In this document: piece after piece, positions 1-6,523 of the stretch | How the letters are laid out: every line of letters begins with the position of its first letter | Position numbering within the stretch: position 1 is the first letter of the stretch | Virus record (IMG/VR): IMGVR_UViG_2663762945_000006 | Location: 1 to 6,523 of that record | Source: a virus | Taxonomy: Duplodnaviria > Heunggongvirae > Uroviricota > Caudoviricetes | Reading direction: 5' to 3' (one strand) | DNA length: 6,523 bases | Notes under the pieces: generated by a model | Seen by the model: the letters and a program-made list of their open reading frames with translations, nothing else | The model's database searches: none | Told to the model about the DNA's origin: nothing | Made by a program: the position numbers and the translations under genes

Positions 1-54
1 ATATAGTTAGAGCAATAACATTACCCAGGCGTTCTGGCGTAGACGATTATTCGA

Positions 55-1642
<1,588 letters not shown>

Positions 1643-1868
1643 TCATTTCCCCTTAACGCCGGGGTAGCGGAACAAAAACCTGCTGCATAGTTATTAAAGT
1701 CGAACCCTGCCATCATGTTCTTACGCCTCGGGCTGGCTACTTAACCCCTGACCACTGCCTGGTAACTCGAAGTATTGCCTGGCGTTCTGTGGGGCGGGGT
1801 GGGTTGATGAAATAATGATGCACTTTTAAAGTTATGATGTCAACACTTATAAAGTTAGCTTTTGATCA

Positions 1869-1896
1869 ATAAAAACCGCCTCGTGTGAAGCGGTTC
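1869..1896 (-). terminator. Rho-independent terminator downstream of the parE-like gene
   Basis: Minus-strand RNA would read CCGCUUC-ACAC-GAGGCGG (7-bp stem with one G-U pair, 4-nt loop) followed by UUUUUAUU. On the plus strand the same hairpin is not followed by a U tract. Lies 16 nt downstream of the parE stop (1912-1914). Confidence 0.6.
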
Positions 1897-1911
1897 TGCG
1901 AAAAAAGAGGA

Positions 1912-2193
1912 TTATCCAGGAAATTGTCGTCTGGAGTGGGTGACACTTACTATTTCAACACTCGAAGCGGCTACACGGTACAGAATGATATAGTTAGGAT
2001 GAGCTACAATCTCACGCAAGCCAAACGCTCTGTCGCTTGATGGGTATAAGTACGGATGTTCAGATAAAGCTAAAACACATGTCTCAATGCGAATCTTTAG
2101 CCTGCGTGCGGCATGGAGATTTTCTTTTGCAATATAGGCTACGATCTGACGTAAATCATCACGTGCAGAAGGTAGCCATAAAATGGGCAGCAT
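1912..2193 (-). CDS. parE2: Type II toxin, ParE/RelE superfamily (93 aa), third gene of a paaR-paaA-parE-type three-component TA operon
   Basis: MLPILWLPSARDDLRQIVAYIAKENLHAARRLKIRIETCVLALSEHPYLYPSSDRAFGLREIVAHPNYIILYRV...VEIVSVTHSRR has the ParE-like pattern (W.P.A..DL..I..YIA..N...A.R......) and the C-terminal (E)I(V/L)(S/R)V.H motif. The ATG overlaps the antitoxin stop (TAATG). SD-like GGGAG about 6 nt upstream. Paralog number (parE1 versus parE2) cannot be decided from sequence alone. Confidence 0.8.
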   Translation of the reverse strand: MLPILWLPSARDDLRQIVAYIAKENLHAARRLKIRIETCVLALSEHPYLYPSSDRAFGLREIVAHPNYIILYRVAASSVEIVSVTHSRRQFPG

Positions 2194-2384
2194 TACACAC
2201 TCCCGCTAGTCGCAGCAATTTGGGCAATGAGATTTTCCATTTCTGCCATTACATCATCATGAGGAATTGCAGGGCGCGGATCTGCAAGATTTGCAGCTAC
2301 TTTTGCACGTAGCCATTCGTTGTAATTATTTTCTTGCTCAACGGTTTCAAACTCAGAAACCATCGGCGAAAGGGCAGTGTTCAT
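2193..2384 (-). CDS. paaA2: Type II antitoxin, PaaA2-like (63 aa), partner of the ParE toxin
   Basis: MNTALSPMVSEFETVEQENNYNEWLRAKVAANLADPRPAIPHDDVMAEMENLIAQIAATSGSV. Length 63 aa and the ...NEWLRAKV... motif match my recollection of the PaaA2 antitoxin of E. coli O157:H7. Start chosen at the internal ATG (2382-2384) because a perfect AGGAGG lies 6 nt upstream; the longer 84-aa ORF (to 2447) has no RBS and overlaps the upstream gene. Confidence 0.75.
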   Translation of the reverse strand: MNTALSPMVSEFETVEQENNYNEWLRAKVAANLADPRPAIPHDDVMAEMENLIAQIAATSGSV

Positions 2385-2413
2385 AACATACCTCCTTTGG
2401 CTTATGATGTAGA

Positions 2414-2821
2414 CTATGCTCGGTGCCCTTTCTGGGCAGCGAGCCATCTTGCAACAGTGCGCTCCATTGATTCTTTTTTGTCTTTCATGTCTTTAAGCAT
2501 TTTTTCTTGATCTTCCTCTGGAAATGCTCCGAATGTTTGAAGCAGTTCCATTTGCCTGGGGCCTATTTTCATAGTATCTGGCACCACAACCTGCTCTTCT
2601 TCGTTTGGCGGTAACATAAACCAATATGGGGGATAACCCGTTACTTCAGAAAGTTTATCAAGATTAGCTGTTGATGGACTTGTGATTCCGTGAACCCACT
2701 TTTGTACCGATTGCTGGGCAACACCAATCCTGCGGGCTAGTTCTGCCTGCTTAAGTCCTGTTTTTTCCAGTACCAATTTTATTCGGTACGTGGTTATTTC
2801 AAGGGTGGTCATTCGCTTCAT
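2414..2821 (-). CDS. paaR2: XRE-family HTH transcriptional regulator (135 aa), PaaR2-like; occupies the CI-repressor position of the prophage switch; no S24 peptidase domain
   Basis: N-terminal HTH: ...LEKTGLKQAELARRIGVAQQSVQKWVHGITSPSTANLDKLSEVTGYP... The C-terminal about 60 aa are acidic/lysine-rich with no Ala-Gly/Ser-Lys peptidase signature. Divergent from the Cro-like gene across a 107-bp promoter region, and immediately upstream of and co-oriented with the antitoxin-toxin pair. Start could be ATG at 2821 (probably leaderless) or the in-frame ATG at 2812. Confidence 0.75.
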   Translation of the reverse strand: MKRMTTLEITTYRIKLVLEKTGLKQAELARRIGVAQQSVQKWVHGITSPSTANLDKLSEVTGYPPYWFMLPPNEEEQVVVPDTMKIGPRQMELLQTFGAFPEEDQEKMLKDMKDKKESMERTVARWLAAQKGHRA

Positions 2822-2928
2822 GCATTCATTTTACATAAAAAAAGTGTAACTAGCACAATCAGCTTAAAGGTGTTGATAAACTAACTTTAAAAGTGTATAA
2901 ATCATGGTGATTCACTGGAGATAACGAT
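2822..2928. promoter_or_regulatory. Divergent promoter/operator region between the paaR2-like repressor and Cro-like ydaS
   Basis: Plus-strand candidate promoter: -35 TTGATA (2873-2878), about 17-bp spacer, TG-extended -10 (TGtATAAAT, 2894-2902), SD GGAG (2917-2920), ATG at 2929. Short symmetric elements: TTACA-N9-TGTAA (2831-2849), ACTTT-a-AAAGT (2884-2894), AATCA-tgg-TGATT (2900-2912). The repressor gene starts at the region edge with no obvious SD, consistent with a leaderless transcript. Confidence 0.5.
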
Positions 2929-3195
2929 ATGCATGAATGTTTAAAAAATAAAATTCACCAAAGAGGGTTATCCCAAGCAGGTATTGCTCGTTTGATTGGA
3001 TTACCGCAACAGGTTGTGTCTCGATGGGCTAATGGTCAGCAGGTCCCTGCATCAAGGGTTCTGCAACTTTGTGAGATTATGGCGTGGGAGGTTACCCCCC
3101 ACGAACTCCGACCTGATATTTATCCTAACCCAACAGACGGCTTGCCTGCTGAGTTTCAGACTAGCACACAGCCAGCGACGGGAGTTGATTCATGA
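2929..3195 (+). CDS. ydaS: Cro-like HTH protein, YdaS family (88 aa)
   Basis: MHECLKNKIHQRGLSQAGIARLIGLPQQVVSRWANGQQVPASRVLQLCEIMAWEVTPHELRPDIYPNP...; HTH plus the ELRPDI motif typical of YdaS/Cro-like prophage proteins. Its stop overlaps the ydaT start (ATGA, 3192-3195). Confidence 0.75.
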   Translation: MHECLKNKIHQRGLSQAGIARLIGLPQQVVSRWANGQQVPASRVLQLCEIMAWEVTPHELRPDIYPNPTDGLPAEFQTSTQPATGVDS

Positions 3196-3617
3196 AAATC
3201 AAGCATGAGCACATCCGCATGGCGATGAATGCCTGGGCATATCCTGACGGTGAGAAGGTGCCAGCTGCTGCTATTGCCAGAGCGTATTTTGAACTGGGGA
3301 TGACATATCCCGAGTTGCACAACGACGACAGGCACAACGCGCTCTATCTCAACACCCAAAAGATTTTCCGTTGGCTGGATAAAGACACTCCTGATGCTGT
3401 TGAGAAAATTCAGGCATTGTTACCGGCGATCGAAAGGGCAATGCCACCTCCGCTGGTAGCCCGAATGCGCAGCCACAGTTCCGCTTATTTTCGGGAGCTG
3501 GTGGAGACGCAGGAACGGCTAGTGAAAGATATCGATGATTTCGTTGCATCAGCGATCGTTCTGTTCGACCAGATGAATCGTGGTGGTCCGGCGGGTAATT
3601 CCGTGGCTGTGCATTGA
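3192..3617 (+). CDS. ydaT: YdaT-family protein (141 aa), proposed CII-like regulator / former 'toxin YdaT'
   Basis: MKIKHEHIRMAMNAWAYPDGEKVPAAAIARAYFELGMTYPELHND...; matches my recollection of Rac-prophage YdaT (about 140 aa, same N-terminus). SD-like GGGAG 7 nt upstream. Translationally coupled to ydaS. Confidence 0.75.
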   Translation: MKIKHEHIRMAMNAWAYPDGEKVPAAAIARAYFELGMTYPELHNDDRHNALYLNTQKIFRWLDKDTPDAVEKIQALLPAIERAMPPPLVARMRSHSSAYFRELVETQERLVKDIDDFVASAIVLFDQMNRGGPAGNSVAVH

Positions 3618-3688
3618 CTGAAAATATTTATACCGGATCGCTTCCGGCAATTCGTGAGTAAAAAGATTCGGTCTCAGAAGAGGTGAGT

Positions 3689-4729
3689 ATGGCTAATGCC
3701 TGGCTCAGATTATGGCATGACATGCCAAATGACCCTAAGTGGCGAACAATTTCCAGGGTGTCAGGACAGCCAATCGCAACAGTGATGGCTGTGTATATCC
3801 ACCTTCTGGTGAGCGCGTCACGAAATGTCACGACATGTCACGGCGTGTCACTACGTGGTCACATTGATGTCACAACGGAAGATTTAGCAAGTGCACTTGA
3901 TGTGACGGAAGAAGTAATTGATTCAATTTTGCAGGCGATGCAGGGGCGGGTGCTTGATGGAGATTTAATCACTGGATGGGAAAAACGCCAGGTAGCGAAA
4001 GAGGATAACGGCAACGTTTCGCAAACCGCGAAATCCCCGGCAGAGCGTAAGAGAGCACAACGCGAGAGGGAAAAATTACGAAAACAGAATGAGGGGTGTC
4101 ACGATGAGTCACGCATATGTCACGACATGTCACTACGAGTCACGACAGATAAAGATACAGATAAAGAATTAAACCCCACACATAACGCGCGCGTGCGCGA
4201 GAGTGCTCCGACCAGTGAATCGAACGGTACGCCGTTGCAGGCAGCGGAACCTGATTACCAGGAAAGCCTGAGCGAACCCATCGGGAAGTTTCCGATGGCC
4301 GATGGCTGGCATCCGTCGCCGGATTTTCGACGGCGGGCTGCACTGTGGGGAGTGGCTCTGCCGGAGCCTGAATTTACACCTGCTGAACTTGCCGCCTTCA
4401 GGGACTACTGGGCAGCTGAGGGGAAAGTTTTTACGCAGGTTCAGTGGGAGCAGAAATTCGCCCGTCACGTAAATCACGTCAGGGCGCAGGTTAAACCAGT
4501 CAGCAAGGGGGTGCGTCATACAGCAGCACCAGGTGGCACCGCATCACGGGCAGTTCGGGAAATTCGGGCAGCACGTGAGCAGTGGGAACGTGAAAACGGA
4601 TTTGTCAGCGACGGAAACGGCGTGGAAGCTGTGGGAGCTCATGGGGGAGGTTTATTCAAACCGCTGGACTCAGAAGAACGGGGCCGCACCTTCGAAGCTC
4701 TGGATTGCCCAGATTGGCGCGATGACTGA
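3689..4729 (+). CDS. Phage replication initiator (lambda O functional analogue) with a DnaT-like C-terminal domain; carries two internal iteron arrays
   Basis: ATG at 3689 with AAGAGG 6 nt upstream (the listed ORF begins at GTG 3683). C-terminal region [62 protein letters not shown] closely parallels the E. coli DnaT C-terminal domain (recalled: [61 protein letters not shown]). The position after the cro/cII-like genes and the internal direct repeats fit an O-like initiator. The last about 65 codons overlap the next gene in another frame, so the true 3' end is uncertain. Confidence 0.7.
3817..3873. repeat. Iteron array 1: six direct copies of GTCAC(G) at 10-11 bp phasing
   Basis: GTCAC begins at 3817, 3827, 3837, 3847, 3858 and 3869 (cgTCACGaaatGTCACGacatGTCACGgcgtGTCACTacgtgGTCACAttgatGTCACA). 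An inverted copy GTGAC lies at 3902-3906. Inside the O-like CDS (codons ~43-62). Confidence 0.75.
4097..4167. repeat. Iteron array 2 (five GTCAC(G) copies at 10-11 bp phasing) plus a tandem 12-bp A-rich duplication; candidate replication origin
   Basis: GTCAC at 4098, 4108, 4119, 4129 and 4139. The 17-mer ATGTCACGACATGTCAC is shared with array 1 (3825-3841 and 4117-4133). Followed immediately by ACAGATAAAGAt ACAGATAAAGAa (4145-4167), an AT-rich stretch, and then a (CG)-rich tract at 4184-4199. Confidence 0.7.
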
Positions 4730-5183
4730 ACAGCAAATCAGGCTGGTCTGCCGTCAGTGCATGGACCGCTGCCGGGCGGGTGAAACGTGGCCCCCGGACC
4801 TGGCTGAGTTTGTTGCGCTGATTTCGGAGAGTGGGGCAAATCCATTTGGTCTTACGGTGGATGCCGTGATGGAAGAGTACCGGCGCTGGCGCAATGAATC
4901 CTGGCGGTACGACGGGAGTGATAAATACCCGTGGCCACAGCCTGTGCTGTACCACATTTGCCTCGAGATGCGCACCAGAGGGATTGAACGTCAGATGACT
5001 GAAAGTGAGCTGAAACGACTTGCAGAACGACTGTTGACCAAATGGGCAAAGAATGTTGGTAACGGCATGAGTGTTCCGCCAGTGCGACGACAACTGGAAG
5101 GGCCAAAACACCCGCCAGGGCCAACGCCAATTGAGTTACTGAAACAGGAATATGAGCGCCGGAAAGCGGCTGGTTTTGTCTGA
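4533..5183 (+). CDS. Lambda P-like replication protein (helicase loader), about 180-216 aa depending on start
   Basis: C-terminal half ...[40 protein letters not shown]... parallels lambda P (recalled: ...AESYPWKSNAHYWLVTNLYQNMRANALTDAELRRKAADEL...), and ...[11 protein letters not shown]...[10 protein letters not shown] parallels lambda ...GITTMEQVNAG...SPGQFVAW. Start is ambiguous: GTG 4533, GTG 4575, GTG 4590 or ATG 4641, none with a strong SD. The frame is open from 4473. An ATG at 4722 overlaps the O-like stop (ATGACTGA) but would remove conserved N-terminal residues. Confidence 0.65.
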
Positions 5184-5216
5184 ATTTGAGAAATGATTTT
5201 GTCGGAGGAAATTTTA

Positions 5217-5930
5217 ATGGAAACCGTTTTTGACGCACTGAAAGCACTGAAAAGAGCCTCTTCACAGGAGGTGTCGGCCCGCCTTGGAATCAGCCGCGAA
5301 GATGCTGTCAACGAGCTGTGGAAGCTGAAACGCCGTGGTGAAGCAGATAACAAGGGGTCGATGTGGTGGCTGACGATTGAGGCAACTGAAATGGTCACAA
5401 AAACCACTGCGGAGATGCTGATTAACTCAATTGAACAGCATGGTCCTCAGTCGGCTGACGAACTGGCGTTAATGTTCGGGATTACCTCCCGCCGGGCGAA
5501 TTCAACGCTGGCAATGGCAATAAGCAAAGGTCGTCTGATTCGAGTAAATCAGAACGGTAAATTTCGTTACTGCCTGTCGGGCGATAATTTACCAGCAGAG
5601 CCGAAAGCTGCATCGGTAACGGAAACTGCTGGTAAAGCCTTTCCTCAGACAGCAGGTGTTGCGTTACCAGTCCGGGAAGCGGAAACACAGGAAGAAATTA
5701 AAACTGAAAGTGTGGCGGTCACAGTGCAGTCACAGCCGTCGTTCACCAGAAAGCATCCGGATAGTCTGATTTTACCATCGCTGCATGTGGCTAACCGCGA
5801 ACTGCGCCGGGCAAAAGGTCAGGTTCAGAAGTGGGAGCGAGTCTGTGCTGCGCTGCGTGAGCTGAACAAGCACCAGGATATTGTTCGACAGATTGTCGAT
5901 TCCTCCAGTCGTATTGTGTCGGAAAAGTGA
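5217..5930 (+). CDS. Hypothetical prophage protein (237 aa) with two winged-helix-like segments
   Basis: ATG at 5217 preceded by GGAGG (5204-5208, 8-nt spacer); the listed ORF starts at an upstream ATG (5193) that lacks an RBS. Segments ...[28 protein letters not shown]... and ...[35 protein letters not shown]... look like winged-helix DNA-binding motifs. No family recognised from memory. Confidence 0.6.
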
Positions 5931-5945
5931 TTGCCGGAGGTACTT

Positions 5946-6338
5946 ATGGCAAGAGTATTTACACAGGAAGAGCGGGAAGAAGTGAAGGCGCGCATTGTGG
6001 AATTCGTGCGCCTGAGCGGACGAGAAACTTTTCGACAACTGGCAGATAAAACGGGTGTCAGTAAGACCGCTATTCGTCGTTTATCTGGTGCGCTTGCGGC
6101 CAGTGGTGATGTCTGGCTCTCTGATTGCGGGGTATTTCCATCAGAGCAGGCGTATCGCGTATGGCGTAAGACACCGGAGAAGGCTGCTGACCCGACACTG
6201 ATTCGAAAGTTACCTGACGGAGAAATACGTCGTTACAACAGATGGCAGAACATAATTTGTCGTGAGTGCCGCCAGAGCGAGGTTATGCAGCGTGTGCTGG
6301 CGTTCTATCGGGGAAACTTTCAGGAGGTGATGGAGTGA
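5946..6338 (+). CDS. Hypothetical prophage protein (130 aa) with an N-terminal HTH-like segment
   Basis: ATG at 5946 with GGAGG (5936-5940) 5 nt upstream; the listed ORF starts at 5931. Segment ...GRETFRQLADKTGVSKTAIRRLSGALAASGDV... is HTH-like. Stop TGA at 6336-6338 overlaps the next start (GTGA). Confidence 0.55.
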   Translation: MARVFTQEEREEVKARIVEFVRLSGRETFRQLADKTGVSKTAIRRLSGALAASGDVWLSDCGVFPSEQAYRVWRKTPEKAADPTLIRKLPDGEIRRYNRWQNIICRECRQSEVMQRVLAFYRGNFQEVME

Positions 6339-6523
6339 GGGTGAGAGTTTATATTGCCGGTCCAATGACGGGATATGAAAATTTCAACCGTGAGGCGTTT
6401 CACAAGGCGGAAGAGGAACTGAAACGGGAAGGGCATACCGTCTTAAACCCGGCAGTACTTCCGGACGGGCTGACACAGCCGCACTACATGGATATTTGCA
6501 TGGCAATGATTCGTTGTGTGGAT
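6335..6523 (+). CDS. DUF4406-family protein (nucleoside 2-deoxyribosyltransferase-like fold), 5' part only; runs off the window end
   Basis: Translation (V)RVRVYIAGPMTGYENFNREAFHKAEEELKREGHTVLNPAVLPDGLTQPHYMDICMAMIRCVD has the characteristic (K/R)(I/V)YIAGPMTG...N...F N-terminus of DUF4406 proteins. GTG start at 6335 with AGGAGG at 6322-6327 (7-nt spacer); alternative GTG at 6341. Not in the ORF track because no stop falls within the window. Confidence 0.7.
   Translation, partial: MRVRVYIAGPMTGYENFNREAFHKAEEELKREGHTVLNPAVLPDGLTQPHYMDICMAMIRCVD

Follow-up and report, generated by a model that had tools for sequence, protein, structure and literature searches.

The DNA analyzed here, referred to as the window, is the entire 6,523-nucleotide (nt) draft contig CDRC01000554.1 of Escherichia coli assembly GCA_000939695.1. 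From position 1619 to its right end, the window corresponds to the early-right region of a Rac-like lambdoid prophage, in which the gene for an 'O-like' replication initiator is followed by the gene for a 'P-like' putative helicase loader. Our analysis concerns the stretch where the end of the first gene and the beginning of the second would be read from the same nucleotides in different frames. The following features were located there (aa, amino acids; ORF, open reading frame; PGAP, Prokaryotic Genome Annotation Pipeline).

3689-4729, plus strand: 'O-like' initiator gene
4470-4472, plus strand: TAA closing the P frame upstream
4505-4511, plus strand: Shine-Dalgarno sequence AAGGGGG of the P-like gene, within the initiator ORF
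4518-4520, plus strand: canonical P-like start codon, ATA in this contig, with an aligned ATG in all relatives examined
4518-5183, plus strand: full-length lambda-P-like helicase-loader ORF ('P-like' loader), 221 codons and stop, ending at 5183
4518-4729, plus strand: proposed dual-coding overlap, 212 nt
4641-4643, plus strand: conserved internal Met codon (loader residue 42), start in 180/181-aa annotations, in the middle of predicted helix 25-46
4722-4724, plus strand: ATG of ATGACTGA, the PGAP start (153 aa), not conserved
4727-4729, plus strand: initiator stop codon TGA

An earlier note on this DNA had described the P frame as open from 4473 and the initiator as ending at 4727-4729, and both can be read directly from the sequence. 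The initiator ORF starts at GTG 3683 in the ORF tool list or at ATG 3689 in the PGAP call, and the P frame, at +1 relative to the O frame, continues to 5183. Besides codon 4518-4520, which is spaced 6 nt from AAGGGGG, the P frame offers GTG 4533 (197-nt overlap if it were the start; 21 nt from the Shine-Dalgarno sequence), ATG 4641 (89-nt overlap; GGGAG 3 nt upstream), and ATG 4722 (8-nt overlap). The note had proposed a long out-of-frame overlap of 89-197 nt; its existence stands, but its canonical size is 212 nt, counted from codon 4518. The note had also seen no good Shine-Dalgarno sequence at any candidate start. It missed the one at 4505-4511, and the true start escaped the earlier reader because its codon is ATA in this contig. 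Given the O protein, a +1 frame as long as this one has a ~39% chance of being open and is unremarkable alone; judging from the sequences compared below, what goes beyond chance in the P frame is homology and conservation, not openness itself.

We compared the DNA of 35 species-level loci and several further loci from E. coli, phages, and Salmonella. In 33 loci, window position 4518 was matched by an ATG lying 5-9 nt past GGAGG, GGGGG, or GAGGT, motifs that precede it in Enterobacterales relatives and in Limnobaculum. The initiator stop was found 149-224 nt beyond the aligned ATG (212 in the window's lineage), always with P in the O+1 frame, and all 68 of 68 close IMG/VR relatives had both the ATG and the 212-nt overlap. 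The loader gene, whose region was matched in 2,707 of 5,426 complete E. coli genomes (about half), therefore has an independent start signal inside the initiator ORF, a Shine-Dalgarno sequence and an ATG conserved in relatives, with ATA in the window. In the protein database, loader homologues fell into length classes of 140, 153, 180/181, 188/189, and 212-223 aa, and the first Met of the 212-223-aa forms (from E. coli, Enterobacter, Klebsiella, Salmonella, Symbiopectobacterium, and others) aligned to 4518-4520. Public records give this same loader gene at least four starts, for products of 221-223, 180/181, 153, and 140 aa, and many representatives of 50%-identity clusters have residue 42 or 69 of the full-length loader as their first residue.

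These records imply two later starts. According to the PGAP model, the loader would begin at ATG 4722, coupled to the initiator stop through ATGACTGA with an overlap of 8 nt, and the frame upstream would be incidental. The record of Escherichia phage Rac-SA53 is annotated in the same way, and an ATGA-type junction is a classic arrangement, as in lambda O/P. However, the position of ATG 4722 is occupied by Leu, Phe, or Cys in other lineages, and the 27 residues just upstream of it (MGEIYSNRW..KNG..PS.LWIAQIG), which such a start would exclude, are the best-conserved part of the N-terminal half of the loader. The earlier note would have taken as refutation orthologue alignments in which the O-like protein extends to 4729 and the P-like protein starts at 4722; in the alignments, O does extend to 4729 but P does not start at 4722, which is the reverse of a refutation. 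Alternatively, the loader could begin at ATG 4641 as a 180-aa protein with an 89-nt overlap, 4518-4640 being non-coding for P. This agrees with 180/181-aa PGAP proteins in Citrobacter, Klebsiella, Salmonella, and Brenneria, with the ~90% conservation of this Met, with the GGGAG just before it, and with the poor conservation of loader residues 1-41. Nevertheless, this Met is internal, and the W..LW motif just before it is conserved as well. Moreover, the upstream ATG and its strong, well-spaced Shine-Dalgarno sequence are kept in the Enterobacterales lineages examined while the sequence after them is barely conserved, Vibrio phages also keep the upstream ATG with a weaker Shine-Dalgarno sequence, and the P frame between codons 4518 and 4641 is open in all lineages examined.

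The O frame could be followed through the same stretch. The initiator tail, comprising the last ~70 codons and read to TGA 4727-4729, is indeed Gly/Ala/Arg-rich and of low complexity, as the earlier note had remarked, and is mostly predicted to be disordered. It was found in the same frame, with a similarly placed stop, in 26 non-redundant enteric lineages, where it carries the motifs T/S-A-S-R-A-V-x-x-I-x-A-A-R, L-x-P-L-D-x-E-E-R, and D-C/S-x-D-W. We reshuffled the synonymous codons of one protein and scored whether the other frame was open. The O frame was open in 26/26 lineages against ~5% expected per lineage given the P protein, and the P frame in 26/26 against ~37% expected given the O protein, per-lineage probabilities that cannot be multiplied since the lineages are not independent. 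Both frames were also open in four Vibrio phages and in Limnobaculum; in the Vibrio phages, chance openness was 0.3-2.6% for the O frame and 8-32% for the loader frame. Two orphan loader loci lack an initiator. The former O frame has three stops in L040 and is still open in L035. These orphan loaders (L035 2426-3052 and L040 2471-3040 in their own coordinates; Erwinia) adjoin chromosomal genes, a ttcA-like gene and a phosphotransferase system (PTS) transporter, and are recent deletion remnants of a prophage in which the loader alone was kept, which makes them of limited use as initiator-free controls.

Conservation of this tail bears on another suggestion of the earlier note, that the 3' region of the initiator gene contains a frameshift or sequencing error. 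The true initiator would then end near 4520, and the Gly/Ala/Arg-rich tail would be an artefact. The low complexity and predicted disorder of the tail, the G5 runs at 4507-4511 and 4643-4647, and the chimeric nature of this draft contig (described below) would fit an error. Yet the same tail, frame, and similar stop, with the motifs SRAV..I.AAR, LD.EER, and DC.DW, recur in the 26 lineages and in Vibrio phages, and the region departs from complete genomes at 4520 alone. These comparisons exclude an error of this kind as the explanation.

Selection on the two frames was estimated as the ratio of nonsynonymous to synonymous substitution rates (dN/dS) by an OLGenie-style method on 55 moderately diverged pairs. 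With 95% bootstrap intervals, which are approximate because the pairs are not phylogenetically independent, the whole overlap gave 0.62 (0.42-0.93) for O and 0.26 (0.15-0.40) for P. Its 5' part (4518-4640) gave 0.60 (0.37-0.94) for O and 0.52 (0.29-0.95) for P, and its 3' part 0.76 (0.23-2.10) for O and 0.07 (0.02-0.15) for P. Codon-position variability showed weak O-type periodicity in 4521-4640 and clear P-type periodicity in 4641-4726 (P3 = 0.50 versus 0.59-0.60 in P-only DNA). Both frames are under purifying selection across the whole overlap, and for the distal initiator tail the main constraint is to remain an open frame. A loader start at 4641 would leave the P-frame constraint of the 5' part unaccounted for, and a start at 4722 would exclude the very residues for which P dN/dS is 0.07.

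We then considered the protein that the full-length loader ORF would encode. It matches the Pfam family Phage_lambda_P (PF06992) at 57.6 bits, above the family cut-off of 26. The match starts at nt 4692, which aligns to position 31 of the 162 in the profile, and thus shows lambda-P-like sequence upstream of the O stop, as the earlier note had proposed; because it opens at profile position 31, about 30 more domain positions would lie further upstream. Position 1 of this profile corresponds to lambda P residue 38. The PHROG family phrog_109 ('P-like helicase loader') was matched with E = 6.7e-62, residues 19-220 (counted from 4518) aligning to profile positions 22-235 of 236. With BLASTP alone, the comparison to lambda P recovered only the C-terminal half, and recognition of the N-terminal half needed profile and structure comparisons. 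In the AlphaFold model of the 221-aa loader (87-sequence alignment; mean predicted local distance difference test, pLDDT, of 79), residues 1-25 are disordered and helical domains follow. A helix at residues 25-46 spans Met42, starting 17 residues upstream of it, and three helices precede residue 69, encoded by ATG 4722. The best Foldseek matches of the model were lambda P chains in complex with DnaB (9oa1/9oa2; probability 1.0), and the full-length chain 9oa1_Z aligned over 218 columns with a template modelling (TM) score of ~0.47, which is modest because the domain arrangement is flexible.

Lambda P is divided into domain I (~1-29, an N-terminal lasso that is probably disordered in solution), domain II (~30-119), domain III (~120-192), and domain IV (193-233, a C-terminal lasso) (PMC12661323). 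The loader model has the same four domains and agrees with this published architecture, so that the overlap would encode, in the +1 frame, domain I and the first three helices of domain II. Sequence matches and model together identify the product as a putative DnaB loader of the lambda P family. These predictions also bear on the two later starts. A start at 4722 would delete the three predicted domain II helices and leave the beginnings of both the Pfam and PHROG matches outside the protein; although reinitiation at 4722 may occur in this particular contig, with its ATA at 4518, we regard the PGAP model as very unlikely. A start at 4641 would fall within predicted helix 25-46, 17 residues after it begins, and would remove a segment for which lambda P has an equivalent in domain I; we consider it unlikely.

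On the initiator side, the model of the C-terminal part contains the DnaT domain, predicted with confidence, and a helix predicted only weakly (~4544-4594), the rest being disordered, so the O frame of the overlap would encode a helix and a disordered stretch followed by the LDxEER...DCxDW motif. According to both models, the structured segment of each protein is encoded opposite a disordered segment of the other. Such pairing of structured with disordered segments is typical of overlapping genes.

Alternatively, programmed +1 frameshifting, which the earlier note had suggested, or transcriptional slippage near the G run could produce an O-P fusion, possibly beside the separate products. P does lie in the +1 frame, GGG_G at 4508-4511 would let tRNA-Gly re-pair after a +1 slip into the P frame, and the internal Shine-Dalgarno sequence can be likened to the prfB frameshift stimulator, which it resembles. 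In addition, a PHROG family of 482 positions, phrog_15931 (labelled 'unknown function'), matches O at 1-347 and P at 280-482, and a few fusion proteins are found in databases. Against this, the O frame contains no X_XXY_YYZ heptamers (the scan found G5 runs only), the G run is not conserved, GGAGGT being found there in most lineages, and we saw no slippery site that is conserved and accompanied by a stimulator in a constant position. Frameshifting is also needless given a conserved ATG with its own Shine-Dalgarno sequence. Folding of 4470-4570 revealed no notable RNA structure that might sequester the internal ribosome-binding site (z = -0.60). A synthetic junction query retrieved only three O-P fusion proteins, P0200, P0159, and P0091, which we treated as assembly artefacts. 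All three carry further frameshifts or internal deletions; P0091 is a singleton, P0159 has 11 member sequences, and P0200 has 44 and was seen on one contig. The family phrog_15931 itself seems to be chimeric, built from merged or frameshifted O-P sequences. We find a programmed O-P fusion highly improbable.

Taken together, the conserved start, the open frames, and the signatures of selection lend strong support to the explanation that the earlier note had listed as a genuine long overlap: 4518-4729 is very probably a genuine, evolutionarily conserved dual-coding stretch, with the loader starting at 4518. The initiator would be read through to TGA 4727-4729, and the loader would be initiated independently inside the initiator ORF, at Shine-Dalgarno 4505-4511 and codon 4518-4520 in the +1 frame; separate initiation events would make both proteins. 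Several points weigh against this explanation, beginning with the canonical start itself, which in this contig is not a normal start codon. The Shine-Dalgarno sequence is weaker in the Vibrio phage start contexts, loader residues 1 to ~24 are poorly conserved and predicted to be disordered, and current PGAP annotation gives the loader 153 or 180-181 aa. From 4641 to 4724, the O frame is without significant sequence-level constraint beyond staying open, and the non-independence of the lineages limits the openness test. According to classical genetics, the C-terminal part of O binds the N-terminal part of P in lambda. By analogy, the segments encoded by the overlap may be the parts of initiator and loader that contact each other.

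The ATA at the canonical start results from a G>A change at 4520, which also replaces Ala with Thr in the initiator. Across 1619-5839, the window differs from the nearest complete genome (UTME-12) at two positions only, one of which is 4520, and the window 61-mer around 4520 was absent from all 5,426 complete E. coli genomes. An exact protein look-up traced the same ATA to one more assembly, GCA_000938575.1, where it lies on contig CDQN01000376.1 with ordinary prophage surroundings. Therefore, the allele is reproducible and not a random read error. Exact-match scans of IMG/VR and JGI metagenomes returned no further carriers of the ATA allele. Initiation at AUA reaches ~1-2% of the AUG level (bioRxiv 10.1101/063800), and translation from the canonical site would be reduced to roughly 1-2% of the level with ATG. 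Residual loader in this contig would be N-terminally truncated, produced from ATG 4641 or, by termination-reinitiation, from ATG 4722; products of these downstream starts would lack domain I, and from 4722 also much of domain II. The replication module of this prophage copy is thus probably attenuated or dead, to judge from its sequence, and a prophage with the ATG>ATA change is expected to be attenuated or defective in replication. Toxicity of lambda P has been described (PMC4926192). Loss of the ATG would fit selection against a toxicity of the lambda P type, and simple decay can be read from the sequence equally well.

To describe the initiator gene, we list the following features within it.

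4289-4489, plus strand: DnaT DNA-binding domain (PF17948), residues 203-269 of the 348-aa ORF, 64.7 bits, confident in the AlphaFold model
3816-3875: first TGTCAC iteron cluster with 10-bp phasing, inside the initiator gene; candidate origin
4097-4167: second TGTCAC iteron cluster with 10-bp phasing, followed by ACAGATAAAGA twice; candidate origin

The initiator, for which the exact protein is WP_044699233.1, appears from its sequence to be a YdaU-type 'phage replisome organizer' with a DnaT-like single-stranded DNA-binding domain and the functional counterpart of lambda O. The 'O-like' label used in the earlier note is apt in that functional sense, but the protein does not belong to the lambda O family: a Pfam search gave no match to Phage_rep_O (PF04492), which lambda O itself matches, and the DnaT domain was found instead. 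Its PHROG matches are annotated 'replication initiation protein' and 'primosomal protein'. The DnaT equivalog NF002770 scored 98 bits against a cut-off of 201, with DnaT positions 79-157 only. As in lambda O, iterons lie inside the initiator's own gene, a functional analogy only. The two clusters, of about six iterons and separated by ~270 bp (the TGTCAC repeats of the second span 4097-4150), are likely a replication origin with a bipartite layout. Among otherwise similar prophages (window, L007 from 1672, L010 from 1732, and P0148 compared), the N-terminal body of the initiator (3689-4290) is mosaic. Besides the window type, there are a DUF1376 type (P0148, P0244), an HTH_36 type, and, in L010, a further type beginning MARIRTVKPEFW... 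with no Pfam match to DUF1376. Whatever the body, the DnaT domain remains linked to the tail and the loader.

Around the replication genes, the window carries the following genes.

1912-2447, minus strand: RelE/ParE and RelB toxin-antitoxin pair
2414-2821, minus strand: cI/DicA-like repressor
2929-3195, plus strand: cro/YdaS-like gene
3192-3617, plus strand: YdaT
5193-5930, plus strand: DUF1627
5931-6338, plus strand: DUF977

The toxin-antitoxin pair (1912-2447) is of the PaaA2 type, lies to the left of the prophage repressor gene, between the repressor and the early-left region, and is common to UTME-12 and the sister assembly. The contig consists of three unlinked pieces: a yiaL fragment (1-210; 98% identity to the chromosome), a pstA'/pstC' piece (202-1619; 100%), and the prophage from 1619, with a 9-nt overlap at the junction of the yiaL and pst matches. 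Window positions 1-3000 were covered to at least 80% in no complete E. coli genome, and the left flank in the sister assembly is ordinary prophage. The contig is probably a chimeric draft product and not a real rearrangement. At the other end, the nearest complete genome shows ~250 differences from 5840 on (5840-6400 compared) versus 2 across 1619-5839, and this drop in identity at 5840 marks a recombination boundary affecting the 3' end of DUF1627 and DUF977. DUF977 is intact in the window but interrupted by a stop codon in UTME-12. The record PP818812.1, named 'Actinobacillus phage vB_Apl-pPE4', is 90% identical to the Rac-like E. coli replication region of the window, with an unexpected host label.

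Among the closest known systems is the Rac-type ydaU/ydaV module of Escherichia phage Rac-SA53 and PPompW/Stx2a prophages, which contains the same two genes with O/P DNA ~87-90% identical. The Rac-SA53 and Stx2/PPompW loci that we examined have an intact ATG with its Shine-Dalgarno sequence, in contrast to the ATA of the window. In the Rac-type records, the loader begins at the 4722 equivalent or a later codon (153 or 140 aa), leaving the overlap unrecorded. The lambda O-P region has the same gene order (cro/cII-like genes, an initiator with internal iterons, a helicase loader), and the window loader is likewise a Phage_lambda_P protein with a lambda-P-like four-domain model. In lambda, however, O and P overlap by only 4 nt, in line with their near-abutment as stated in the earlier note, whereas the window genes share 212 nt in different frames; the window initiator is YdaU-type with a DnaT domain and not Phage_rep_O, and the N-terminal half of the window loader is of a distinct 'W..LW..M..IY..RW..KNG' type.

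A tblastn search of phage genomes with the 221-aa loader matched 124 Vibrio phage records, by the N-terminal half only, and four groups of these phages were examined (D77, K249, 1.247.B, and D68). In them, the initiator tail is overlapped over 191-212 nt by the N-terminal half of the loader in the same +1 frame. The tail carries SA..AI.AAR..., VD.EEW, and D..D; one example, ...EAMGNTDGVLHGQVHQEERGGSFIDLDNGDW, aligns pairwise to the window tail with E = 1e-4. The first ~130 loader residues are 31% identical to window P (E = 8e-25). Unlike in the window, the initiators have an HTH_36/DnaD-like body and lack a DnaT domain, and the C-terminal half of the loader is unrelated to lambda P domains III/IV and has no Pfam match. 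Viral loaders of the VdhL type adjoin lambda-O-like genes and are ~30% identical to some PF06992 proteins (PMC11087808). The Vibrio phage loaders match this description, from which we infer that they belong to the VdhL type; the paper describing VdhL makes no mention of an overlap (PMC11087808). The Vibrio loader ORFs (L051 2001-2660, L054 1501-2160, L055 1390-2019, and L056 1393-2034, each in its own coordinates) are annotated from internal codons (2334-2660 in D77, 1570-2019 in 1.247.B), so that the records show neither their N-terminal halves nor the overlap.

Sister modules provide the complementary comparison. L048, L049, and PAS61 combine a DnaT-domain initiator with a lambda-type P, and in L048 and L049 the Phage_lambda_P loader directly follows the initiator, as in the window; L043, L044, and L047 are lambda-type-P modules. 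Some loader C-terminal halves in sister modules are ~50% identical to that of the window, but the N-terminal half is lambda-like and the initiator ends in a short tail of another kind (..DWNNTDW..GV.DE.. or ..HWNSPEAWEEFL). In lambda, phi80 gp14, L043, L044, L047, L048, and L049, all with a lambda-type loader N-terminal half, the two genes abut or overlap by only 4-29 nt. Therefore, the type of initiator tail and the type of loader N-terminal half vary together, and only one specific combination of the two has the long overlap.

From these comparisons, the overlap cassette appears older and more mobile than the genes that surround it. It is conceivable, though we hold the idea only tentatively and think it rather doubtful, that the ~200-nt stretch is a portable 'handshake cassette' in which the initiator tail and the loader N-terminal domain are mutual recognition segments that move as a unit. 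If so, recombination could not separate the two interacting surfaces, and the cassette would move among initiator bodies (window-type, DUF1376, and HTH_36/DnaD-like, with or without a DnaT domain) and among loader C-terminal halves (lambda P III/IV or VdhL-like) in phages of Enterobacterales and Vibrionaceae. The overlap itself offers a testable handle on how initiator-loader specificity stays together in mosaic phage genomes.

In the literature on ydaU/ydaV, on DnaT and replication protein P, on overlapping helicase-loader genes, and on overprinting, we did not find this overlap described. The genes, and overlapping phage genes in general, are known; no account came to light of the present overlap, of its conservation between enteric prophages and Vibrio phages, or of its systematic mis-annotation. 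Most current loader models drop domain I and part of domain II, which would mislead cloning or modelling. As in lambda Rz/Rz1 and in the phiX174 A/B/K and D/E genes, two proteins would be made from one stretch of DNA in different frames. Here, the ends of two adjacent genes are joined instead of one gene being embedded in another, and the products are presumed, by analogy with lambda, to be partners, which would make this a deeply conserved case of two replication proteins that share coding DNA.

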